From a virus, in UHGV virus genome UHGV-1378817: a stretch of DNA of 64,000 bases, one strand, 5' to 3'. The position numbers and the translations under genes are program-made. The notes beneath the pieces were generated by a model, which was not told the DNA's origin, ran no database searches, and saw nothing but the letters and a program-made list of their open reading frames with translations. Position 1 is the stretch's first letter; each line of letters begins with the position of its first letter. Shown here one piece after another: positions 2,518 to 12,032 of this stretch.

Positions 2518-2594
2518 TGGTCTCCACGGAGTGATTCGAACACTCGACCTCCTGATCCCAAATCAGGCGCTCTACCAAGCTGAGCTACGCGGAG
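2518..2594 (-). tRNA. tRNA-Pro (anticodon UGG)
   Basis: Minus-strand cloverleaf: 7-bp acceptor stem, anticodon stem CCUGA/UCAGG with loop UUUGGGA, T-loop GTTCGAATC, encoded CCA. Confidence 0.7.
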
Positions 2595-2605
2595 TATTTA
2601 TTATT

Positions 2606-2680
2606 TGGTGGCCCTGGGTGGAATTGAACCACCGTCTGGCGATTATGAGTCGCTTGCTTGAACCTTCCAGCTACAGGGCC
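2606..2680 (-). tRNA. tRNA-Met (anticodon CAU; could be a lysidine-modified Ile tRNA)
   Basis: Acceptor stem GGCCCUG/CAGGGCC, anticodon loop CUCAUAA, T-loop GGTTCAATTCC, encoded CCA. Confidence 0.6.
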
Positions 2681-2681
2681 A

Positions 2682-2757
2682 TGGTGCTGATAGCAGGACT
2701 CGAACCTGCAACCTATTGATTACAAATCAATTGCACTACCAATTGTGCTACATCAGC
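2682..2757 (-). tRNA. tRNA-Thr (anticodon UGU)
   Basis: Acceptor GCUGAUG/CAUCAGC, anticodon stem AUUGA/UCAAU with loop UUUGUAA, T-loop GGTTCGAGTCC, encoded CCA. Confidence 0.65.
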
Positions 2758-2762
2758 AAAAA

Positions 2763-2861
2763 GGTGCTAGGTGATGGAATCGAACCACCTATGTATTCAA
2801 CGACTACCTCGTCTATTTTCAGGATTAAAAATCCTCGCCCTTGCCAAAGGGCTTACCTAGC
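2763..2861 (-). tRNA. type II (long variable arm) tRNA-like gene, anticodon ambiguous
   Basis: Good acceptor stem (GCUAGGU/ACCUAGC), D-arm and T-arm (GGTTCGATTCC) plus a long variable arm, but the anticodon arm only forms a 4-bp stem with loop UUUUUAA; no encoded terminal A. Confidence 0.4.
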
Positions 2862-2959
2862 TCAGTATGTTGACCATGTTGCTAGTCGGCGATGACGACT
2901 GTAACATTTGATAATCCGGTTCTGCTTCCGGCTTTCGCTTAATTACAAGGTCAACAATA

Positions 2960-3049
2960 TGGCTGAGGGTAATGGAATCGAACCATCATCGAGTCATCCT
3001 CAACGGGACGGTTTTCAAGACCGCTTGAGCACCATTGCTCCCTACCCTC
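2960..3049 (-). tRNA. tRNA-Ser (anticodon UGA)
   Basis: Acceptor GAGGGUA/UACCCUC, anticodon loop CUUGAAA, long variable arm, T-loop GGTTCGATTCC, encoded CCA. Confidence 0.6.
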
Positions 3050-3164
3050 ATTTATAAACAATACTGATAATGACACTGATTTTCGAGCAGTTAGTGACTA
3101 GTATAAACGACGATAAATATCAATGCCATTATCTGTATGATTTATGCATTTAAAACTATAAATT

Positions 3165-3251
3165 TGGTGGGGAGTGGTGGAGTCGAACCACCCGAGTCGC
3201 AATGACAATAGATTTACAGTCTACACCGCTACCTCTACGGGATAACTCCCC
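3165..3251 (-). tRNA. tRNA-Tyr (anticodon GUA)
   Basis: Acceptor GGGGAGU/ACUCCCC, anticodon loop CUGUAAA, long variable arm, T-loop GGTTCGACTCC, encoded CCA. Confidence 0.6.
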
Positions 3252-3255
3252 AATT

Positions 3256-3330
3256 TGGCACCCCGTACTGGACTCGAACCAGTGTCAACGGCTTAGAAGG
3301 CCGCTGCTTTATCCACTAAGCTAACAGGGC
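3256..3330 (-). tRNA. tRNA-Arg (anticodon UCU)
   Basis: Acceptor stem with G-U wobbles, anticodon loop CUUCUAA, T-loop GGTTCGAGTCC, encoded CCA. Confidence 0.65.
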
Positions 3331-3426
3331 ACTGGGTGGCTTTCTTTTACACCTTAGCCGCCAGAAAAGGTGGGAGACCATGTTTACAATATTACACTGT
3401 TAAGCAAAGTTTGTCAAGAAAATATT

Positions 3427-3765
3427 TTAGCTATTGCCAACAGGTTGTATTTCTGTGGTAAATGGCATAAAAGGTGCTGGTTTTTCAGCCTCTTCTACTA
3501 CCACCTCTTCCTCTTCACCAAACATCTCATCATATTCTTCCTGCATTCGGTCTGCCTTATCAAGAACATACTCTGCAATGCTTTGACGAATATTTTGTTT
3601 GGTTTTCGGGTCCAACATCAGCTCTCTTAAAACTTTGTGAGCTTCTGGAACCATCGCTATAAAAGATTCCTTCATATCAAGGATGTTCTTCTCTAGCTGA
3701 ATGGCGTTGGACTCCTCTTTCAGAGGTCTGCCTCTACGGCGACGCTTTTTAGTTGTATCCGCCAT
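3427..3765 (-). CDS. hypothetical protein, basic N-terminus and acidic C-terminus
   Basis: ORF 3427-3918 trimmed to internal Met (MADTTKKRRRRGRP...); minus-strand TTGACA-17-TAAAAT promoter and GGAGGA RBS immediately upstream. Confidence 0.45.
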   Translation of the reverse strand: MADTTKKRRRRGRPLKEESNAIQLEKNILDMKESFIAMVPEAHKVLRELMLDPKTKQNIRQSIAEYVLDKADRMQEEYDEMFGEEEEVVVEEAEKPAPFMPFTTEIQPVGNS

Positions 3766-4113
3766 GTTTCCTCCATTATCACGTGATAGGTGGATTTTAT
3801 CATAGCAAATACTGATTGTCAAGTTCGCCGCAGGGTGGTATTCCCTGCGACTTGCCCAGCGTCCTGGACCAGCAAGACCCAACAAGTGGGTTTTCCAGCT
3901 ATACCCATTACCGCACACAGGCTCGACCTTATTACAGGTTGGCTGGGGTCACATCGTCATGTGCTGGCTGCCCCTACCATTTTAAGTGTGGTGCACTATC
4001 AAGCCCTCTAAGGGGAACTCAGCCTTCTCCGAACCCTGTTTCAAAGCATCCGGAGATAAAGCCATCAAATTCATCTTTAAATTGGATATTCATCATAATA
4101 CACGAAAACAACC

Positions 4114-4356
4114 TCATTGTAAAGCACAAATAAATAAAACATACTTAATTTGTTTGTTATCAGGCTCAGGGTAGAAGTAGAAGATCTTGCTATCACCGAT
4201 CTGAACACCACCATCCCAACAGCATAGCCCATAACCCGTATTCATACAAGCTAAGTCGTTGGCAAAATCTATTGCATCATCCAGTGCACGAAATTCACCT
4301 TCATCTTCTAAATAATCCTCATTCATGGAACGAAAAACGAGCTTAACCTTAAACAT
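4114..4356 (-). CDS. hypothetical protein
   Basis: 80-aa minus-strand ORF in a gene-dense minus block. Confidence 0.35.
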   Translation of the reverse strand: MFKVKLVFRSMNEDYLEDEGEFRALDDAIDFANDLACMNTGYGLCCWDGGVQIGDSKIFYFYPEPDNKQIKYVLFICALQ

Positions 4357-4432
4357 AGCATTACCTGTAGACCTCGTAAGTTAAAATTGTATCACATCAT
4401 ATTGCAGATCTTATCAGGTAACATTATTTTTG

Positions 4433-4642
4433 TCAACAGATTCCGGCCTTATCTCGCCTGTCTGCGTATTCTTTAATCGCAACCTCCTCGGCATGGGTGA
4501 CTAAATCTTCAAAGTAACTCTCAAGCTCCTCGTCAATGTCAGGAAACCAACTCTTTTTCCTGTCAGTGTGAATCGCAGACTTGTTGAATTTATTACAGTT
4601 CTTTGCTACCGGATTGTTCATTAATCGCCCCTCAGCGTTCAT
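4433..4642 (-). CDS. hypothetical protein
   Basis: 69-aa minus-strand ORF; start region overlaps the stop of ORF 4632-5210. Confidence 0.3.
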   Translation of the reverse strand: MNAEGRLMNNPVAKNCNKFNKSAIHTDRKKSWFPDIDEELESYFEDLVTHAEEVAIKEYADRRDKAGIC

Positions 4643-5210
4643 AGTAAATCTTATTTAACATTACCTCATCCTTTGCAGAGAGAATACCGAGATATGCATC
4701 ACCGAACCTACCTGCAACAACCTCTACATGATACATAACTTCGTTAATATCGTCAAGAGTGATAACTGGATGACCGTATCTCTCTGAGTATTGTCTCAGA
4801 GTGCGATGTAGGGAATCATCATCGTAGGCAGACTTTTTAATATCACAAACACGACGAATAGCCTTGATGTCGAAAAACCCTGTGCGATACCAACCAAGAA
4901 AAAGGTTTCGTACAGTGTCAACACCTACATCAACACCGTCAAGAACCTTATCTACAAGATAGCTGTCATCCTTTGGACCTGCTTCCTTAGTTCGAATGTA
5001 GTTGCCATCTTTTCCAGGTGACAGCTCCTTCTCATCACCAACCTGAATGCCATCATTTGGCGGTGTTAACCACTTATCCGGATGCTTACGATCACGAGCG
5101 TTAGAATGATTACGCTGGAAACCTGGCTTCCACTTGAAAGTTTTCTCCATCTGTTCTTCATTCTGATAACGTTTTGCAATCTTTTCACGGTCATCTTTGC
5201 GTGGACTCAT
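4632..5210 (-). CDS. hypothetical protein
   Basis: 192-aa minus-strand ORF; no motif I recognise. Confidence 0.45.
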   Translation of the reverse strand: MSPRKDDREKIAKRYQNEEQMEKTFKWKPGFQRNHSNARDRKHPDKWLTPPNDGIQVGDEKELSPGKDGNYIRTKEAGPKDDSYLVDKVLDGVDVGVDTVRNLFLGWYRTGFFDIKAIRRVCDIKKSAYDDDSLHRTLRQYSERYGHPVITLDDINEVMYHVEVVAGRFGDAYLGILSAKDEVMLNKIYYER

Positions 5211-5713
5211 AACTACCTCCTCTTCAAGTTATAGAAAAACTCACTGTATCGCTTTGTAACGAGCTTTTCTATCAAACTGGTGCGATTGCCTTACCTGGTA
5301 TAGTTTATATAGCTGTGGAGCGATTTAGGTGCCTTCTTGTCCGTTTCCACACATAAACTTCATCCAAGCTCGCGCGGGAGACTCTCAACCGACTCCTTAC
5401 GGCGCTGGCAAGCTTTCGTCGGTGGTCCACATCAGTGCTCGGCCTTTGGCCTGCGCTATCGCTTCGCTCCCACACATGTTAACAGACCTGCATGTATGCA
5501 CTTCTGTTATTGTGTGCACCAGGGAGGCCCGGCATCTCGCCCCTCGTAGGCGAGTGCCAATGAAGGGCCGACACTACCCATAGTAAGTAATAAATTTAAA
5601 ACATGGTACTTAGGATCTAGTATATTCTACATAAGTTAAGTATATGTACTTAGTACCATAAGTACTAGATCTTTTATTTTTTATTATTTAGTTATTTTAG
5701 TTATATTCTTTAT

Positions 5714-5795
5714 GTGTCCGTATCACGGACAGTTAGTGTCCGTATTACGGGCAGATGTGTCCGCGTGACGGACAGTAGTGTCCGTATCACGGACA
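5714..5795. repeat. four tandem copies of a 17-bp palindrome TGTCCGT-N3-ACGGACA (operator- or iteron-like array)
   Basis: Copies at about 5714, 5737, 5758 and 5779; two perfect (TGTCCGTATCACGGACA), two degenerate; spacing 21-23 bp. Confidence 0.6.
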
Positions 5796-5870
5796 GTTAC
5801 TAACCTCTGTTCCATAGCGAACATAAAACATACGAATCCTTATAGTACAGATATTTAAGTTTTTACTGGT

Positions 5871-6221
5871 CTAACCAGTTGTTGACATTCGAATAACCTC
5901 TTCTGGTGGCAAAACTTTGGAAAATGTGCATCTTTTACCTCTCCCTTGTGTGGATATTTCAACCACTCCTGCACATTCTAAAGTTTTAACGCACGCTGCT
6001 GCTTTTGTTTTCTTTATCCCAACATCTGCTGCAATTTTCCTTGTGCTGGGTGTGAAGCGTGAACTTCCTCCAAGCTTATACCAGTTGTGCAGGTAGCAGT
6101 ATACGATCTTGTCATACAAGTCAAGAACAACAACCTCCCCAGTTGTGTCATTCAAAACTTTTGACATAGACAGTATTTCAAGGGGGACTTTAAGATATAG
6201 CAGCTTATCCCCATCTTTCAT
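5871..6221 (-). CDS. putative helix-turn-helix DNA-binding protein
   Basis: 116-aa ORF; C-terminal segment TPSTRKIAADVGIKKTKAAACVKTLECAGVV looks like an HTH/winged-helix; sits next to the palindrome array. Confidence 0.35.
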   Translation of the reverse strand: MKDGDKLLYLKVPLEILSMSKVLNDTTGEVVVLDLYDKIVYCYLHNWYKLGGSSRFTPSTRKIAADVGIKKTKAAACVKTLECAGVVEISTQGRGKRCTFSKVLPPEEVIRMSTTG

Positions 6222-6268
6222 ATCTCCTGATTCTCCTTGTGTGGCAATTTTCTTTAAAATAGCAGGGA

Positions 6269-6823
6269 TTACTCCCCGCTGTCAATAGCAAGACTCATTG
6301 CAATACTGTATGCCTCTTCTAATGGTAAGAGTCTACCCCACACATCCCAACCGACATCAAACTGCCTGCCAAACAACTGTTGTGTGGTTCCGTGAGCATG
6401 ACCGAACAGTTGTACTGATCCGTGAGGCTTTCTGTTCCACTTTGCAAACTGGTAATGGCTCATACAGATCAAATTCTTGTTGTGGCGAAGCTCGTAATAA
6501 TCTACAACCTCATGATAGAACTCTTTCATAATTCTGACAGTCGTCCTTGTGTCATGGTTGCCACGAACAAGAATAATATGTCCGTTCAACATATTTAGAA
6601 TATCTGGAAGTAAGTTGTTGATATTTTTATCAGTAGTGCACGCAATATCTCCCAAGTGGAACACAGTGTCTGCAGGTGACACAACAGAGTTCCACTCGGC
6701 GATGATTCCCGCATTCATACTGTCAAGATTGTGATCATACTGAGATCTGTGTTTTTGACATGAATCAAACTCCATGACCCGCTGGTGGAGAAAGTGTGTG
6801 TCGCTTGTTACAAAGTATTTCAT
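6269..6823 (-). CDS. calcineurin-like metallophosphoesterase
   Basis: Motifs SDTHF (DxH), GDI, GNHD and GHAHG in canonical order; ORF 6269-6928 trimmed to Met MKYFVTSDTHF. Confidence 0.6.
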   Translation of the reverse strand: MKYFVTSDTHFLHQRVMEFDSCQKHRSQYDHNLDSMNAGIIAEWNSVVSPADTVFHLGDIACTTDKNINNLLPDILNMLNGHIILVRGNHDTRTTVRIMKEFYHEVVDYYELRHNKNLICMSHYQFAKWNRKPHGSVQLFGHAHGTTQQLFGRQFDVGWDVWGRLLPLEEAYSIAMSLAIDSGE

Positions 6824-6830
6824 ACATTCC

Positions 6831-7241
6831 TCATTTAAGTTTAATGCAGTTTTTAAGCTGGCGTTCCATACGATCCACAACCCTGTCTGGAACATCATGA
6901 ATGCTTTTATTACCGTGTCGGTTTTCAACCACGATTACGGTATAATTATACCCATGGCTGATTGCCATGTCAACATATTCTTGCACATGTTTTTCTTTTG
7001 TAAACGTATTACTTACCACGATACGGTCGTATCCCATACGCATCATATCTTCTACGTTATCTTTGCACCATTTTGCTGCAAGTGTTACTTTACTTGCATC
7101 CCAGTTGTAATTGCCGTCATCGTCGTACCAGAACATGTCGTTCTCAAAATGTGGATACAGACCTTCTAAAGATAGCGCATTTGCCAGTGTTGATTTGCCA
7201 GACCCTGGTAGACCACGCACGATATATAGCATTTTAGACAT
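6831..7241 (-). CDS. P-loop polynucleotide 5'-kinase-like protein
   Basis: MSKMLYIVRGLPGSGKSTLANAL Walker A; overall pattern resembles the T4 Pnk kinase domain; GGAGGA RBS upstream of ATG at 7241. Confidence 0.55.
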   Translation of the reverse strand: MSKMLYIVRGLPGSGKSTLANALSLEGLYPHFENDMFWYDDDGNYNWDASKVTLAAKWCKDNVEDMMRMGYDRIVVSNTFTKEKHVQEYVDMAISHGYNYTVIVVENRHGNKSIHDVPDRVVDRMERQLKNCIKLK

Positions 7242-7341
7242 AGTAATCCTCCGTTTTAATTTCAAAGATAGTATACCTAACTGTTTTGTTAATTTCAAGT
7301 GTTGACACTAGGTTATTTGTGTGGCAGGATAGACTGACAAA

Positions 7342-8277
7342 ATGACAAATGAGGAACGTATGATGAAGTATTTTAATGCAGACGACCTAGTTGACAAAGG
7401 TCTTGTAACCAGTAGATATTACCCAGATCTTGGGTTAAAGATCTATAAATACGCCAGAAAAGTATTTTACAACAATTTATGGCATTTGTCCCCTCGTTTA
7501 CTGGAGTGCCGAGGCATTGTTGTCGGTAATGAAGGAAATGTTGTGGCATGGCCCTTCACAAAAGTGTTTAACTTGGGAGAAAACTCCACCAACCTGCCTG
7601 ACAATAAGCTTGTGACGGCGGTAGAGAAAAAGAACGGATTCCTTGGTGTGGTATCATCTCATAAAGGTGAACTATTGTTCTCAACAACCGGATCTCTTGA
7701 TTCTCCATATTGTAACCTTGCAAAGGAAACCATCCAGGAGCAATGCGGTAATTTAGATCTTATCAAGAAGGTTATGGGCAATGAAAACATGACATTCATG
7801 TTTGAAATTTGTCACCCTTCAGATCCGCATATTGTTCAGGAAGATCATGGCGCATATTTGATAGGTTGCAGGTATAATGATTCTGGAATAATGCTACCAG
7901 AGGCAGCTTTAGATGGGATTGCCAAATACCTTGGTGCAAAACGTCCTCACACTGTGCGTGAAATTCCGTTCAGCTATGCAAAAGAATTGGCTGCAGAAAC
8001 AAGAGGTGAAGGGTATATGATTCGTAAGCCTTACTATCCTTATGATCTGCAGCTGAAGATCAAGTCTCCATACTATCTGGCACGGAAGGCCGTAATGAGG
8101 GGTAAAGCTTGGAAGATTTGGGATGATGATATCTTTAAACGTGTTGACGAAGAGTTTTACGGCATGGTAAACTTCATTCGCAACAACTACACAGAGGATG
8201 TATGGAACTGCCTCCTGGAGCAGGAACGCCGTGAGATACTTGACTACTATTTCCACAACGAGGACTATATGCAATGA
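7342..8277 (+). CDS. RNA ligase (T4 Rnl1-like)
   Basis: LLECRGIVV, PFTKVFNLGEN and nucleotidyltransferase motif I lysine in VEKKNGFLGVV parallel T4 RnlA (ECRGIMF, PMEKFFNLNEN, LTKEDGSLV). True start may be ATG at 7360 (better RBS). Confidence 0.55.
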   Translation: MTNEERMMKYFNADDLVDKGLVTSRYYPDLGLKIYKYARKVFYNNLWHLSPRLLECRGIVVGNEGNVVAWPFTKVFNLGENSTNLPDNKLVTAVEKKNGFLGVVSSHKGELLFSTTGSLDSPYCNLAKETIQEQCGNLDLIKKVMGNENMTFMFEICHPSDPHIVQEDHGAYLIGCRYNDSGIMLPEAALDGIAKYLGAKRPHTVREIPFSYAKELAAETRGEGYMIRKPYYPYDLQLKIKSPYYLARKAVMRGKAWKIWDDDIFKRVDEEFYGMVNFIRNNYTEDVWNCLLEQERREILDYYFHNEDYMQ

Positions 8278-8624
8278 AGAAGTTGATTGTGTGGCTGGAT
8301 GACTTGAGAGACCCGTCAAATTATGGGCTCCCAGACGCTATTTGGCTAAAGAATTCCTCCGAGTTTATGGATTTTATTAACGATAATAGAAAGCTCTACA
8401 GACGCGTTTCTGAGTGGCATATGGACAACGACCTTGGAGAGGTATTAGAAGGGTACGATTGTCTATCTATGTTGGAGGAAAAATTTGTATTTGGTAAGCC
8501 TCCTGTAGTTGACAACGTGAAGATTTTCGTGCATACTTCTAACCCATCAGCTGCTCGTAAATTCATGCTTGCAGCTGACTCGTTTAAAAAGTTTGGAATA
8601 GAGATTAAACAAAACATCTACTGA
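8274..8624 (+). CDS. hypothetical protein
   Basis: 116-aa ORF translationally coupled to the RNA ligase gene; no motif I recognise. Confidence 0.45.
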   Translation: MKKLIVWLDDLRDPSNYGLPDAIWLKNSSEFMDFINDNRKLYRRVSEWHMDNDLGEVLEGYDCLSMLEEKFVFGKPPVVDNVKIFVHTSNPSAARKFMLAADSFKKFGIEIKQNIY

Positions 8625-8632
8625 GGACACTT

Positions 8633-9394
8633 ATGCGACGACTTATTATTATCTCCGGTGCTGGTTTGAGCGCTGAATCTGGTATTCCCACTTTCCGATC
8701 TGGTAGCACTGCAATGTGGGAGAATTTCAGCATCGATGAGGTGTGCAACATCCACACCTTTGCCAAGAACTACTATAAGGTGCATGACTTTTACAATGCA
8801 CGTCGTGTAGCTCTAGGCAGTGTTGAGCCTAACCTTGCACATCTTCGGATCGCTGAGTGGTATTCCCGCTGGTCTGGTCGTGTGATCAACCTTACCACCA
8901 ATGTAGATGATTTGCTGGAGCGTGCTGGTGTAAAACATGAAGATATTTTACATGTCCACGGGTATTTGCCAGAAATAGTCTATGAGGACGATGAAGGAAG
9001 TGACGTCATTAAGGACATTGGATACTCTGAGGTAGACGCAGGAAAGTATACCTGGGTTAAGCCTAATGTGGTGTTCTTCGGAGAAGTAGCTCCGAAGTAT
9101 ACAGACATGTATGACCTGTTGACTTCTCTTACGAGCAATGATATGGTTATCCTTGTAGGGTGCTCCAACACAGTTATCAATTTTAACTGGGAGCTATTCC
9201 CTGCCTGCAATAAGGGAACAAAACTGCTGATCGTTAACAAATACGACTCACAGCAGCTAGGGGAGAATGGCATTTCACGTAGTGATATTTACCAATATGA
9301 GGATCGCGGCATCCCAGTTTGGTTTAACGGGGCGGTTGATGCTTTCTCTGATAAAACATTCATTGAGACCGTAGAAAACTTTATGGAACTTTAA
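8633..9394 (+). CDS. Sir2 (sirtuin) family NAD-dependent protein
   Basis: N-terminal GAGLSAESGIPTFRSG matches the sirtuin NAD-binding motif GAGISAESGIPTFRG; downstream NxxD...HG pattern (TNVDDLLERAG...HVHG). Confidence 0.7.
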   Translation: MRRLIIISGAGLSAESGIPTFRSGSTAMWENFSIDEVCNIHTFAKNYYKVHDFYNARRVALGSVEPNLAHLRIAEWYSRWSGRVINLTTNVDDLLERAGVKHEDILHVHGYLPEIVYEDDEGSDVIKDIGYSEVDAGKYTWVKPNVVFFGEVAPKYTDMYDLLTSLTSNDMVILVGCSNTVINFNWELFPACNKGTKLLIVNKYDSQQLGENGISRSDIYQYEDRGIPVWFNGAVDAFSDKTFIETVENFMEL

Positions 9395-9407
9395 AAGGAG
9401 ACCTTTA

Positions 9408-10121
9408 ATGCTGAATACCAAATTAATTGACAACCTGGAAAAACTGTCCCAACCTGAAAACTACCTTTGGTCTGCCAACTGGGTGGAAAACTGGAACCGT
9501 GTGGCAGCTAAAGTGAAAAAATCATACACACCATTCGAATTACAGCTTAGCTTCATTGAGGAAGAGTTCAATGAAGTTTTGGAAGAGCTGGAGAAAGGTG
9601 ATGGCGGAGATCACCTGCTAAAAGAGGCCTGCGATCTTCACGTTGTCACAAGTTATGCCGCTTATCTTGTTAATGATAATCACGAAAAGTGGTCAAACCT
9701 GTTTGATAATCCACAGGGTCTTAAGTTCAAGATCGGTGAGTTCTATGATACACTGATCGCTGCGAAAAACACCTCTAAGCAAAAAGCGTCCGCTTACCGC
9801 TTAGCAGAGTTGTCAACAGCTTTGCTGTTCCAGCTTCGCGGCGATGTGTGCGGGATGATGCGTAAGGTTCTCAAATCGAATGACAGCAAGTTTGCACGGG
9901 TCAACCATCTACGGTATTCACACGGTGCCAGTGCAGATATGCCTGCTGAACAACTCATCGAGTTGGAGATTAAAGATCTTGAGCGACGCTTTGATGGTCG
10001 ATATGAAGGTTTTGTTGCTAAGGAAGAATTCTACAACGGTAATAAAGTTATCATATTCCTTGACAGCAAAGGTAAGATCATGAAGCCTTCGAGCTTCAAG
10101 GATGTAACAGAGTATATTTAA
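9408..10121 (+). CDS. hypothetical protein, possibly MazG-like all-alpha NTP pyrophosphohydrolase
   Basis: FIEEEFNEVLEELEKGD...LLKEACDLHVV resembles the MazG EExxE...D acidic motif; weak. Confidence 0.3.
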   Translation: MLNTKLIDNLEKLSQPENYLWSANWVENWNRVAAKVKKSYTPFELQLSFIEEEFNEVLEELEKGDGGDHLLKEACDLHVVTSYAAYLVNDNHEKWSNLFDNPQGLKFKIGEFYDTLIAAKNTSKQKASAYRLAELSTALLFQLRGDVCGMMRKVLKSNDSKFARVNHLRYSHGASADMPAEQLIELEIKDLERRFDGRYEGFVAKEEFYNGNKVIIFLDSKGKIMKPSSFKDVTEYI

Positions 10122-10128
10122 CAACATA

Positions 10129-10147
10129 GCCGGGATTACCCGGCTTT
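10129..10147 (+). terminator. putative terminator hairpin
   Basis: AGCCGGG-att-ACCCGGCT followed by TTT, directly after the stop of ORF 9408-10121. Confidence 0.4.
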
Positions 10148-10493: not shown

Positions 10494-10749
10494 TCTTGCT
10501 AAACCTGTAGAAGCACACCAGTTTGACGGAAGCTCTTCATCAGTATCTGATCTGCAACGGTGGATTGATACAGGTGTGTTTACATCGTCACCTGTTCGTA
10601 CCAGAGATCTTCGTCGCATGTGTGAGCTTGTCGAGCCGTTTGGTAACCTGGTCTTGTACCAGGGAGATTGGTTAGTTGACTTTATGGGAGACTGGTTGGT
10701 AATGAGTAAAGAAGAGATGTTTAACATTTTTAAGGAAGAGGCCGAGTAA
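10480..10749 (+). CDS. hypothetical protein
   Basis: 89-aa ORF; stop overlaps the DNA ligase start. Confidence 0.35.
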   Translation: MPLFNLAKPVEAHQFDGSSSSVSDLQRWIDTGVFTSSPVRTRDLRRMCELVEPFGNLVLYQGDWLVDFMGDWLVMSKEEMFNIFKEEAE

Positions 10750-12032
10750 TGCATCAGATCAAAACAACACTGTACGCACTGAACAAAGATGGCAGCTACC
10801 AACAGTGGAAAGTATTCACGGATGGTGATAAGGTTATCGTAGAGTTTGGCAAGCTTGATGGTAAACTGCAATACAAAGAGACGGTATGCACGCCTAAGAA
10901 CGTAGGTCGTGCCAACGAGACTACCGCTGAGCAACAGGCCGAGCTTGAGGCTATTAGCAAGTGGGAAAAACAAGTCCGTCTTGGGTATGTTGAGAATATG
11001 GAAGATTGCGAGCAGGGTGTTGACCTTTTACCCATGCTGGTGCATGACTACCTGAAGCGTGGCAAGGCTCTTAAATTACCTTGCTGGATCTTGCGTAAGT
11101 TAGATGGCCTTCGTCTACTTGTTGTTTTCCAGAATGGTGAGCCCAAATTTATTTCCCGTGGTAATAAGTCCTACCCTATTCAAGGAAAGCTTCTGGAGCA
11201 ACTTCGCTCTTTCCACCTCACCACTGGGATTAAACAGCTCGACGGAGAGCTCTATATTCATGGTCTGCCTCTGCAGAAAATAGTTTCTCTTGCTAAACGA
11301 TGGCGCACACAGGAAGAAATTCAGGCCGAGATCGATAAAGACTACAAGGCAGATAAAAAACGCCGTCAGGCTGCTATTAAGGCAGGTTTAGCAACATACA
11401 AAAACTTCAATAAGATGGACATTCCTGTTGATGTTGAGCCTGTTCGTGATGATTTGCGTTACGGAGGGTATTGCAGCTACGACTTAGAGTATCATATTTT
11501 CGATATCCCTAGCGATAAGGTGTGGTGGGATCCTGAAACAGAGTCTGGGCGCTGTAAGGATCTTATGGAGGCAAATGGTGCCATTTCTTCTTTGATGCTT
11601 GATCATATTAAGGTTGTTGATGCAGAGCTTGCATATACAGTTGATCGGTGCGAAGAGTCTGTTGGTATATTTATGTCTGAGGGATATGAAGGTACCATTA
11701 TGCGTAACTTCTGTGGTAAGTATGAGTATGGTCAGCGAACATCTGAAGCATTGAAATGGAAAAAGTTCAACGACGCAGAGGTGAAAGTTATTGACGTTGA
11801 GAAAGATAAGAATGATGAAGGTGTTCTTATCTGTGTTGACAAGGAGGGTGTTGTTGTTAAAATGAAGATGAAAGGCACGCACGAGGAGCGTAGCTATGAC
11901 AGGATGCAGGAAATGATCGGCAAGTTTGTCACCTTCAAATATCAAGCAAGGACAGAAGACAACAATTACCAATTCCCTGTCGGTATCTGCGTCCGAAATG
12001 TTAACCCGGACACTTGGGAGGTGCTGGAATGA
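10749..12032 (+). CDS. ATP-dependent DNA ligase
   Basis: Motif I KxDGxR (ILRKLDGLRLLV), motif IV-like SEGYEGTIMRN, motif V-like LKWKKF; 427 aa. Confidence 0.75.
   Translation: MHQIKTTLYALNKDGSYQQWKVFTDGDKVIVEFGKLDGKLQYKETVCTPKNVGRANETTAEQQAELEAISKWEKQVRLGYVENMEDCEQGVDLLPMLVHDYLKRGKALKLPCWILRKLDGLRLLVVFQNGEPKFISRGNKSYPIQGKLLEQLRSFHLTTGIKQLDGELYIHGLPLQKIVSLAKRWRTQEEIQAEIDKDYKADKKRRQAAIKAGLATYKNFNKMDIPVDVEPVRDDLRYGGYCSYDLEYHIFDIPSDKVWWDPETESGRCKDLMEANGAISSLMLDHIKVVDAELAYTVDRCEESVGIFMSEGYEGTIMRNFCGKYEYGQRTSEALKWKKFNDAEVKVIDVEKDKNDEGVLICVDKEGVVVKMKMKGTHEERSYDRMQEMIGKFVTFKYQARTEDNNYQFPVGICVRNVNPDTWEVLE

Follow-up and report, generated by a model that had tools for sequence, protein, structure and literature searches.

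To our knowledge, the kinase-phosphatase Pnkp and the RNA ligase Rnl1 of bacteriophage T4 make up the only phage RNA-repair system with experimental support so far. According to the T4 annotation, pseT and rnlA mend tRNA that has been cut by PrrC. Defences that cut tRNA are common in bacteria, and a recent preprint lists RloC (a relative of PrrC), PARIS, retron-Septu, Cas13 and others. Here we analyse a locus of the virus genome UHGV-1378817, taken as one stretch of 64,000 nucleotides (the window), in which a P-loop kinase, a binuclear metallophosphoesterase (MPE) and an RNA ligase of the Rnl1 family are encoded by three separate genes. The phage is an rV5-type phage of E. coli, and we consider it fairly probable that this locus specifies an RNA heal-and-seal pathway split over several proteins, which would mend cut tRNAs.

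A prediction that the neighbourhood of phage V5 serves RNA repair with the use of NAD+ has already been published (Iyer, Burroughs, Anantharaman and Aravind 2022, Viruses 14:1977, PMC9503650, section 3.7.3), and the sirtuin-centred neighbourhood of Phage V5 and Proteus phage Mydo in that paper is essentially the window locus. All the components of its type 2 definition, namely sirtuin, T4-like tRNA ligase, cREC, nucleotide kinase, MazG and calcineurin-like phosphoesterase, lie within 6269-10121. Its authors proposed that the sirtuin strips the 2'-phosphate from RNA in the manner of KptA, listed the MazG-like protein in the V5 neighbourhood, and called cREC, which the same group had defined in a 2021 jumbo-phage paper (PMC7824862), experimentally uncharacterised. 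Our literature search found no experimental work on this predicted repair system. The 3.6-kb stretch round the repair genes shares 97-98% identity with over 100 rV5-like Vequintavirus genomes (for example Phage 203/206 and BASEL phage RudolfGeigy, Bas52), and GenBank relatives already label the three genes 'polynucleotide kinase', 'phosphoesterase' and 'RNA ligase'. The system is already known, as an in-silico prediction for this phage group, and already annotated.

Other described systems share part of this chemistry. In T4 the phosphatase is a HAD (DxDxT) domain fused to the kinase, whereas in the window it is a separate MPE, and the cREC, Sir2 and MazG-like genes of the window are extra. 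The bacterial Pnkp-Hen1 systems (C. thermocellum Pnkp, CthPnkp; Capnocytophaga Pnkp1-Rnl-Hen1) likewise bring together a kinase, a binuclear metallophosphoesterase and ligase chemistry for RNA repair, but CthPnkp is one trifunctional polypeptide where the window has three genes; no Hen1-like gene was found among annotated or scanned neighbours, in a search for Hen1 that was not exhaustive. In the 2'-phosphate pathway of fungi and plants (Trl1 + Tpt1), activities are fused that are separate in the window, a 2H cyclic phosphodiesterase takes the place in which cREC or the MPE would serve here, and the NAD+ enzyme is the ADP-ribosyltransferase Tpt1/KptA instead of a sirtuin.

In the pathway that we propose, the small P-loop kinase would phosphorylate the 5'-OH and an MPE of the Aquifex aq_1665 type would open and take off the cyclic or 3' phosphate, the two acting jointly in place of T4 Pnkp; the Rnl1-type ligase would then reseal the break through a Lys96-AMP intermediate. 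The cREC, Sir2 and MazG-like proteins would be a lineage-specific accessory branch. This reading is drawn from the family placement of the proteins, the coincidence of kinase D35 with T4 Asp35, the invariant metal ligands of the MPE, the conserved linkage of the genes, the V5 prediction and the T4 precedent. We infer a counter-defence role for the cluster.

Predicted kinase, metallophosphoesterase and RNA ligase

A sequence-only reading had pointed out the three genes and a seven-gene tRNA array; the open reading frame (ORF) listing and ARAGORN place all of them at or near the positions that it gave (Table 1), and Pfam, phrog and profile searches bear out that the three proteins belong to families needed for RNA end healing and sealing.

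The kinase ORF spans 6831-7298 (-), and the ATG at 7241 gives a protein beginning MSKMLYIVRGLPGSGKST. It carries the P-loop GLPGSGKST (K16/S17) and matches Pfam AAA_33 (6.6e-11), phrog_2071 (2.5e-58) and, more weakly, phrog_505 'polynucleotide kinase' (3.8e-10). Its family is a very large set of stand-alone proteins of ~130 aa (more than 8000 candidates scored), in whose alignment R9, G10, G15, K16, T18, D35, N78, T79, E106-N107-R108-H109 and H115 are invariant. Single-sequence searches of PDB with the kinase and with the ligase returned noise only, and family profiles were required. Compared with all PDB sequences, the kinase profile was led by a Rhizopus kinase (9e-6) and L-seryl-tRNA(Sec) kinase (PSTK, 3e-4), followed by Pnkp1 of the Pnkp1-Rnl-Hen1 complex (3.5e-4), T4 polynucleotide kinase (4-6e-4) and C. 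thermocellum Pnk (2e-3), and it reached adenylate, shikimate and gluconate kinases just at E >=0.02, via the P-loop. The nearest solved relatives are consequently polynucleotide and tRNA kinases, and membership of an unrelated nucleotide kinase family was rejected. When the family was aligned by hhalign to T4 Pnkp, taken from the T4 genome (95.8%, E 8e-9, T4 residues 2-141), the invariant D35 fell on the essential Asp35 of T4, the general base; T4 R122 aligned with the invariant R108, and the T4 lid residue R126 with a variable position (K112). The 136 aa make up a kinase domain alone, without the C-terminal DxDxT (HAD) phosphatase. These comparisons place the protein as a kinase-only relative of T4 Pnkp, outside the T4 Pnkp family proper, and we propose that it is an RNA 5'-OH polynucleotide kinase.

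The MPE gene follows the kinase at its 3' side after a gap of 7 bp, head to tail, so that the two stand in tandem and not 'back-to-back', as had been suggested. The protein (N-terminus MKYFVTSDTHF) matches Pfam PF00149/PF12850 (Metallophos) with 30.7 and 27.6 bits, at or over the cutoffs. All five binuclear-metallophosphoesterase motifs (DxH, GD, GNH, H, GHxH) were found, and the metal ligands D8, H10, D59, N89, H123, H142 and H144 and the motif III histidine H90 are invariant in 37 homologues. The family, present in ~1,190 phage records from many host genera, has a profile that matched Aquifex aq_1665 (1xm7) in PDB at 6e-29 and then, weakly, GpdQ, YfcE and a Pseudomonas putida MPE nuclease. 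Neither lambda phosphatase nor CthPnkp nor any Ser/Thr protein phosphatase of the PPP type was among the matches at E up to 1, and the lambda-phosphatase/PPP-type module (GDxxDRG and GNHE motifs) does not occur in the MPE; a PPP identity was therefore rejected. The arrangement had been thought closer to bacterial Pnkp than to T4. This holds at the level of the superfamily, but with CthPnkp missing from the profile matches there is no specific kinship. As aq_1665 is a structural-genomics protein without assigned function, the match places the fold family and identifies no substrate. We propose the MPE as a 2',3'-cyclic phosphodiesterase and 3'-phosphatase acting on RNA 3' ends. A perfect sigma-70 consensus (TTGACA-17-TATAAT, 12/12) lies at 6945-6973 (-), within the kinase coding sequence and ~120 bp 5' of the MPE start, the sole 12/12 match across the 4.5 kb scanned; it might give the MPE a transcript of its own.

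The ligase probably starts at 7360 or 7363, giving 304-305 aa instead of the 311-aa ORF, because a GAGGA Shine-Dalgarno sequence lies at 7351-7355, the consensus of 31 homologues begins at MKF, the annotated gene length in GenBank relatives is 918 nt, and the structural model of the long form shows disorder at residues 2-7 (pLDDT <50). It matches Pfam PF09511 RNA_lig_T4_1 (6.4e-15, 56 bits against a cutoff of 28.3) and phrog_562 (1.3e-66). T4 Rnl1 is the sole PDB match of the family profile (2e-12; hhalign 97.3%) and, among ligases, the closest in fold. The predicted adenylylation site is K96, with K96-K-N-G aligned to K99-E-D-G of T4 (motif I), and FEIC (E155), EGYM (E223, G224) and KIKS (K239, K241) are aligned to T4 E159, E227/G228 and K240/K242; the nucleotidyltransferase motifs I, III, IV and V are invariant across the 31 homologues. 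Mutagenesis of T4 Rnl1 identified Arg54, Lys75 and Phe77 among its essential residues, and their counterparts, R57 (ECRG) and K74 and F76 (PFTKVFN), are likewise invariant. Profile alignments with T4 Rnl1 end near T4 residue 250, and the C-terminal domain of the window ligase is short and helical (~243-305, ~65 aa), about half the T4 length. A T4 RnlA orthologue in the sense of NCBIfam TIGR02308 was rejected on its score (39.3 bits against a cutoff of 242.25), the short C-terminal domain and the replacement of K119 by T116. By family assignment the protein belongs to the Rnl1 family (PF09511; T4 Rnl1 / Trl1-LIG clade) and is no T4 RnlA orthologue. For none of the kinase, MPE, ligase and cREC did an NCBIfam family score above its cutoff.

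Table 1. Positions in the window of the repair genes and associated features; the last row refers to loci of other phages
Feature	Position	Strand	Basis or source
tRNA array, seven genes	2518..3330	-	ARAGORN; Rfam tRNA matches; RudolfGeigy annotation of homologous region
Metallophosphoesterase (MPE), stand-alone binuclear, 184 aa, aq_1665 family	6269..6823	-	ORF listing
P-loop kinase, stand-alone, 136 aa, AAA_33	6831..7241	-	ORF listing, Pfam, phrog, PDB profile, hhalign
Divergent intergenic region	7242..7359		Promoter scan, by-eye reading, GC skew, Gotham PhagePromoter annotation
Rnl1-family ATP-dependent RNA ligase (predicted), 311-aa ORF	7342..8277	+	ORF listing, Pfam, phrog
cREC, 116 aa	8274..8624	+	Pfam PF20274, phrog_1479
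Sirtuin (Sir2), 253 aa	8633..9394	+	Pfam SIR2, phrog_2162, PDB SIRT5/CobB
MazG-like nucleotide pyrophosphohydrolase homologue, 237 aa	9408..10121	+	phrog_671
Bidirectional intrinsic-terminator-like hairpin	10128..10145		Terminator scan; ARNold terminator at same place in phage Gotham
NAD-salvage pair beside cassette	L087 1405-4103; L088 8641-11671; L003 9099-11661		ESCO8, Vibrio phage GRLPWR, 91-kb contig

Linkage in other phages and the accessory genes

To place the three genes in a wider context, we scanned the six-frame ORFs of 80 IMG/VR loci, whose kinases are 40-51% identical to that of the window, with HMMs built from our own alignments. The linkage counts are lower bounds, since contig ends cut many loci, and some loci are near-duplicates. 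An aq_1665-type MPE was found in 57 of the 80, always on the kinase strand and directly adjacent in 30; an Rnl1-like ligase occurred in 21, and all three genes together in 18. The order is mpe-lig-kin in an Erwinia Henunavirus (followed by Sir2, DNA ligase and MazG), in ESCO8 (Stephanstirmvirinae; preceded by cREC and followed by DNA ligase and MazG) and in an unclassified 91-kb metagenomic contig, lig-kin-mpe in the Vibrio Demerecviridae phage GRLPWR, and kin-mpe in a 283-kb contig. The genes are thus collinear in relatives, unlike the divergent arrangement of the window. Furthermore, phrog_8238 matches both the kinase (profile positions 2-109) and the ligase (441-686), a pattern consistent with kinase-ligase fusion proteins, although no member was inspected.

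The grouping of kinase, MPE and ligase is no chance event, because many unrelated phage contigs have members of these three families grouped on a single strand. The linkage counts and the collinear operons of different lineages show that the core consists of kinase and MPE (with or without the ligase), and that Sir2, cREC and MazG are variable additions. The view that the three activities are encoded as separate genes has stood, and the trio is a conserved cassette; the set in the window is, however, larger than was thought, as the ligase is first in an operon that also includes cREC, Sir2 and the MazG-like gene. In the published, sirtuin-centred analysis (PMC9503650) the phosphoesterase is 'occasional'. 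When the kinase is taken as the starting point, no partner is more constant than the MPE, and MPE, ligase and kinase emerge, beyond that analysis, as a widely distributed core triad.

The accessory genes form a compact unit with the ligase. The ligase stop overlaps the cREC start (ATGA), the four genes are co-oriented and apparently co-transcribed, and the terminator-like hairpin closes the unit after the MazG-like gene. The cREC protein (Pfam PF20274, 'cyclic-phosphate processing receiver domain'; E 1.3e-14, 55 bits, cutoff 27) keeps the receiver-type acidic set D9, D10, D51 and D53 together with T88, and is proposed to open 2',3'-cyclic or ADP-ribose cyclic phosphates without metal. Sir2 (Pfam SIR2 3e-27; phrog_2162 5e-109; PDB SIRT5/CobB ~2e-21) keeps the GAGxSxxSGIPTFR NAD motif and the catalytic histidine H109. 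It has just three scattered cysteines and no CxxC pair, so that it lacks the usual zinc-binding module and fits the 'distinct clade of sirtuins' of PMC9503650; following the hypothesis of that paper, it would remove the 2'-phosphate of RNA with NAD+, by analogy with KptA/Tpt1. The MazG-like protein matches phrog_671 (6e-22) and no Pfam family, and has homologues near the cassette in loci L086 and L087.

In the model of Iyer et al. (2022) these genes would provide the main route of repair, an account that overlaps our own and differs from it in the healers of the 3' end. There, cREC would leave a 2'-phosphate by opening the 2',3'-cyclic phosphate, sealing would fall to the Rnl1/Trl1-like ligase, and the sirtuin would transfer the 2'-phosphate to NAD+ like KptA/Tpt1, leaving MazG and the MPE just to clean up ADP-ribose cyclic phosphate or nucleotide by-products. 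The tightly spaced, terminator-closed unit, the above-cutoff cREC match and the naming of phage V5 in the published analysis all speak for this route. However, among the 80 loci we found no match to Sir2 or MazG and one weak match to cREC (E 0.002), compared with the 57 for the MPE; these three scans used single-sequence HMMs of limited sensitivity, so that absence there is soft evidence. Moreover, cREC occurs without Sir2 in ESCO8 and Sir2 without detectable cREC in the Erwinia phage, no sirtuin is known to act on an RNA 2'-phosphate, and cREC is uncharacterised in the words of its own proponents. We regard it as unlikely that the NAD+ route is the principal one. Within the heal-and-seal reading that we prefer, the accessory branch probably offers an alternative NAD+-dependent clearing of 2'-phosphate or cyclic-phosphate ends, or disposes of ADP-ribose by-products.

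By annotation, a PRPP-synthetase-like and a nicotinate-phosphoribosyltransferase-like gene, together an NAD-salvage pair, adjoin the mpe-lig-kin cassette in the three loci of the last row of Table 1. The pair is missing from the window, which instead carries the NAD+-consuming Sir2, and no NAD-salvage genes came up when the remainder of the window was scanned with Pfam. Such neighbours, and the Sir2 and MazG-like genes of the window itself, would suit an MPE that, perhaps with the kinase, served in counter-signalling or nucleotide metabolism by degrading cyclic (oligo)nucleotide or ADP-ribose-derived immune messengers, with no role at RNA ends; its nearest characterised structural relatives include the small-molecule phosphodiesterases YfcE, MJ0936, GpdQ and Rv0805. 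We think this very unlikely: it leaves unexplained the tight and repeated operon linkage of kinase and MPE with an Rnl1-type ligase, and PADLOC, run on six proteins of the cluster, gave no meaningful match to a defence or anti-defence model, just weak P-loop similarities.

A further account would have the kinase and the MPE heal DNA ends (5'-OH, 3'-phosphate, blocked nicks) with the phage DNA ligase in replication or repair, the RNA ligase being incidental. DNA and RNA are both substrates of T4 Pnkp, and a gene for an ATP-dependent DNA ligase lies at 10749-12032, 2.5 kb downstream, as one also does beside the cassette in L003, L086 and L087. The partner that adjoins or overlaps these genes in the collinear operons is nevertheless the Rnl1-type RNA ligase and not the DNA ligase, for which the HMM matched just 4 of the 80 kinase loci; the score for TIGR04123 (18.6) is far under the cutoff of 150. 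This makes DNA ends an improbable primary substrate.

Several observations weigh against RNA heal-and-seal. The ligase lies within 6 kb at just about a quarter of the kinase loci, of 60 other loci just 9 have tRNA genes no more than 6 kb from the kinase, and the frequent presence of the DNA ligase leaves room for a role at DNA ends. Where T4 Pnkp has the acceptor-binding Arg38, the window kinase has Trp38 and its family consensus Phe. The long C-terminal domain of T4 Rnl1 (T4 residues 255-374, 120 aa), which confers tRNA specificity, is missing from the window ligase, and Lys119 of T4 Rnl1 is replaced by Thr116. The structural neighbours of the MPE (LpxH, MJ0936, YfcE and the P. putida MPE) are diesterases or nucleases whose substrates are unrelated or unknown. 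Taken jointly, the more specific proposals that kinase and MPE are a widespread two-protein equivalent of Pnkp, and/or that the rV5 sirtuin, coupled to the pair, removes the RNA 2'-phosphate with NAD+, are put forward tentatively and may well not hold.

Gene-block boundary, flanking genes and tRNA array

Upstream of the kinase, the promoter scan gave a minus-strand promoter-like sequence, TTGAAA-17-TATACT (7298-7270), at a place that carries a PhagePromoter annotation in phage Gotham. The sigma-70 scan found no plus-strand promoter in the kinase-ligase gap; by eye, a TTGACA at 7302-7307 is followed after 17 bp by TGg-CAGGAT (extended -10-like), and this counts as weak evidence. Cumulative GC skew is lowest in the gap, at ~7200, and all the genes called to the left of it are on the minus strand and all those to the right on the plus strand. 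Because the skew minimum and the switch from leftward to rightward genes fall together there, the gap is where the genome's two large, oppositely oriented gene blocks meet and not a dedicated regulatory node; the minimum could mark a replication-related boundary. With the trio collinear in relatives, the proposal that the genes are organised round one divergent promoter region is not supported.

Beyond the MPE, 47 bp from its 3' end and on the same strand, a small helix-turn-helix (HTH) protein is encoded at 5871-6221 (-). The protein falls in phrog_12838 'replication initiation protein' (8.5e-80), while its DUF6945 and HTH_36 matches stay under the Pfam cutoffs; it is a 'putative transcriptional regulator' in the annotation of relatives, and may share a leftward transcript with the MPE. 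In the rest of the window the Pfam scan found nucleotide-metabolism genes (RNR, NrdD, ThyX, PhoH, NT5C and Endo VII) and no RtcB, Rnl2, 2H, Tpt1 or other further RNA-repair genes. Among the relatives, 18 GenBank records (MG0656xx, 'Campylobacter phage', host C. jejuni) are 97-100% identical to the E. coli rV5-like region; their host labels look doubtful, and they may be coliphages carried through isolation.

The tRNA array comprises, in order, Pro(UGG), a CAU tRNA (Met by ARAGORN, Ile2 in the BASEL record of RudolfGeigy), Thr(UGU), an atypical Lys(UUU), Ser(UGA), Tyr(GUA) and Arg(UCU). Rfam recognised six of them at the gathering score, and the Ser tRNA matched the tRNA-Sec model alone, below threshold. 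The fourth, at 2763-2861 (-), is 97-99 nt long (Rfam tRNA 35.5 bits; 'tRNA-???' in ARAGORN), and its anticodon loop UUUUUAA assigns it to Lys(UUU). An insertion of 26 nt in the variable region forms an extra 5-bp hairpin resembling a class II arm (minimum free energy -34.2 kcal/mol, z -3.7). Across 90 Vequintavirus records this tRNA shows at least 99% conservation; its annotation there is often missing or reads tRNA-OTHER or tRNA-Lys. Since PARIS cuts tRNA, and tRNA-Lys(UUU) is a target of both PrrC and PARIS, this copy of altered shape could be a nuclease-evading or nuclease-resistant replacement working alongside repair. The tRNA-Thr(UGU) of the phage (2682-2757, -) has the anticodon stem AUUGA/UCAAU, without a paired CNG motif. 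P2-OLD needs that motif to cut tRNA-Thr(UGU), and phage threonyl-tRNAs are reported to resist OLD for want of it (PMC12445682).

The nearness of tRNA genes, to which the sequence-only reading had given weight, is real in the window but is no conserved property of the repair module, since a conserved association was looked for and not found (the 9 of 60 loci given above); some of the nine are striking, such as L069 with 23 tRNAs directly upstream. Nearby phage tRNA genes may, by conjecture, replace tRNAs that are beyond repair. A 'two-layer' scheme, in which tRNA supply adds to repair, is plausible and has already been published as a general hypothesis (PMC7824862, PMC9503650); adjacency in the window does not demonstrate it.

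Implications for phage RNA repair

The finding is real and biologically coherent, and the functional reading first made of the genes was largely reasonable. The prediction itself is not new; what is added here is its confirmation, a sharper placement of the families, and the recognition of kinase and MPE as the conserved core. If the reading is true, an AAA_33 kinase and an aq_1665-type MPE would constitute a third, independently evolved 3'-end-healing chemistry in phage tRNA repair, and the orphan structural-genomics fold 1xm7 would gain a function. With thousands of metagenomic relatives of the kinase and the MPE family in ~1,190 phage genomes, the pair is abundant. The removal of 2'-phosphate, if true, would be a new sirtuin reaction, in a bacteriophage with fungal-style, 2'-phosphate-dependent ligation, and the rV5 lineage would offer a test for action of a sirtuin and a receiver-like domain at RNA ends. 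The separate kinase, the aq_1665-type phosphoesterase and the short Rnl1 ligase would then form a widespread alternative toolkit, carried by many therapeutic-candidate phages of E. coli, Klebsiella, Vibrio, Pseudomonas, Listeria and Staphylococcus, and could affect which hosts such phages overcome.

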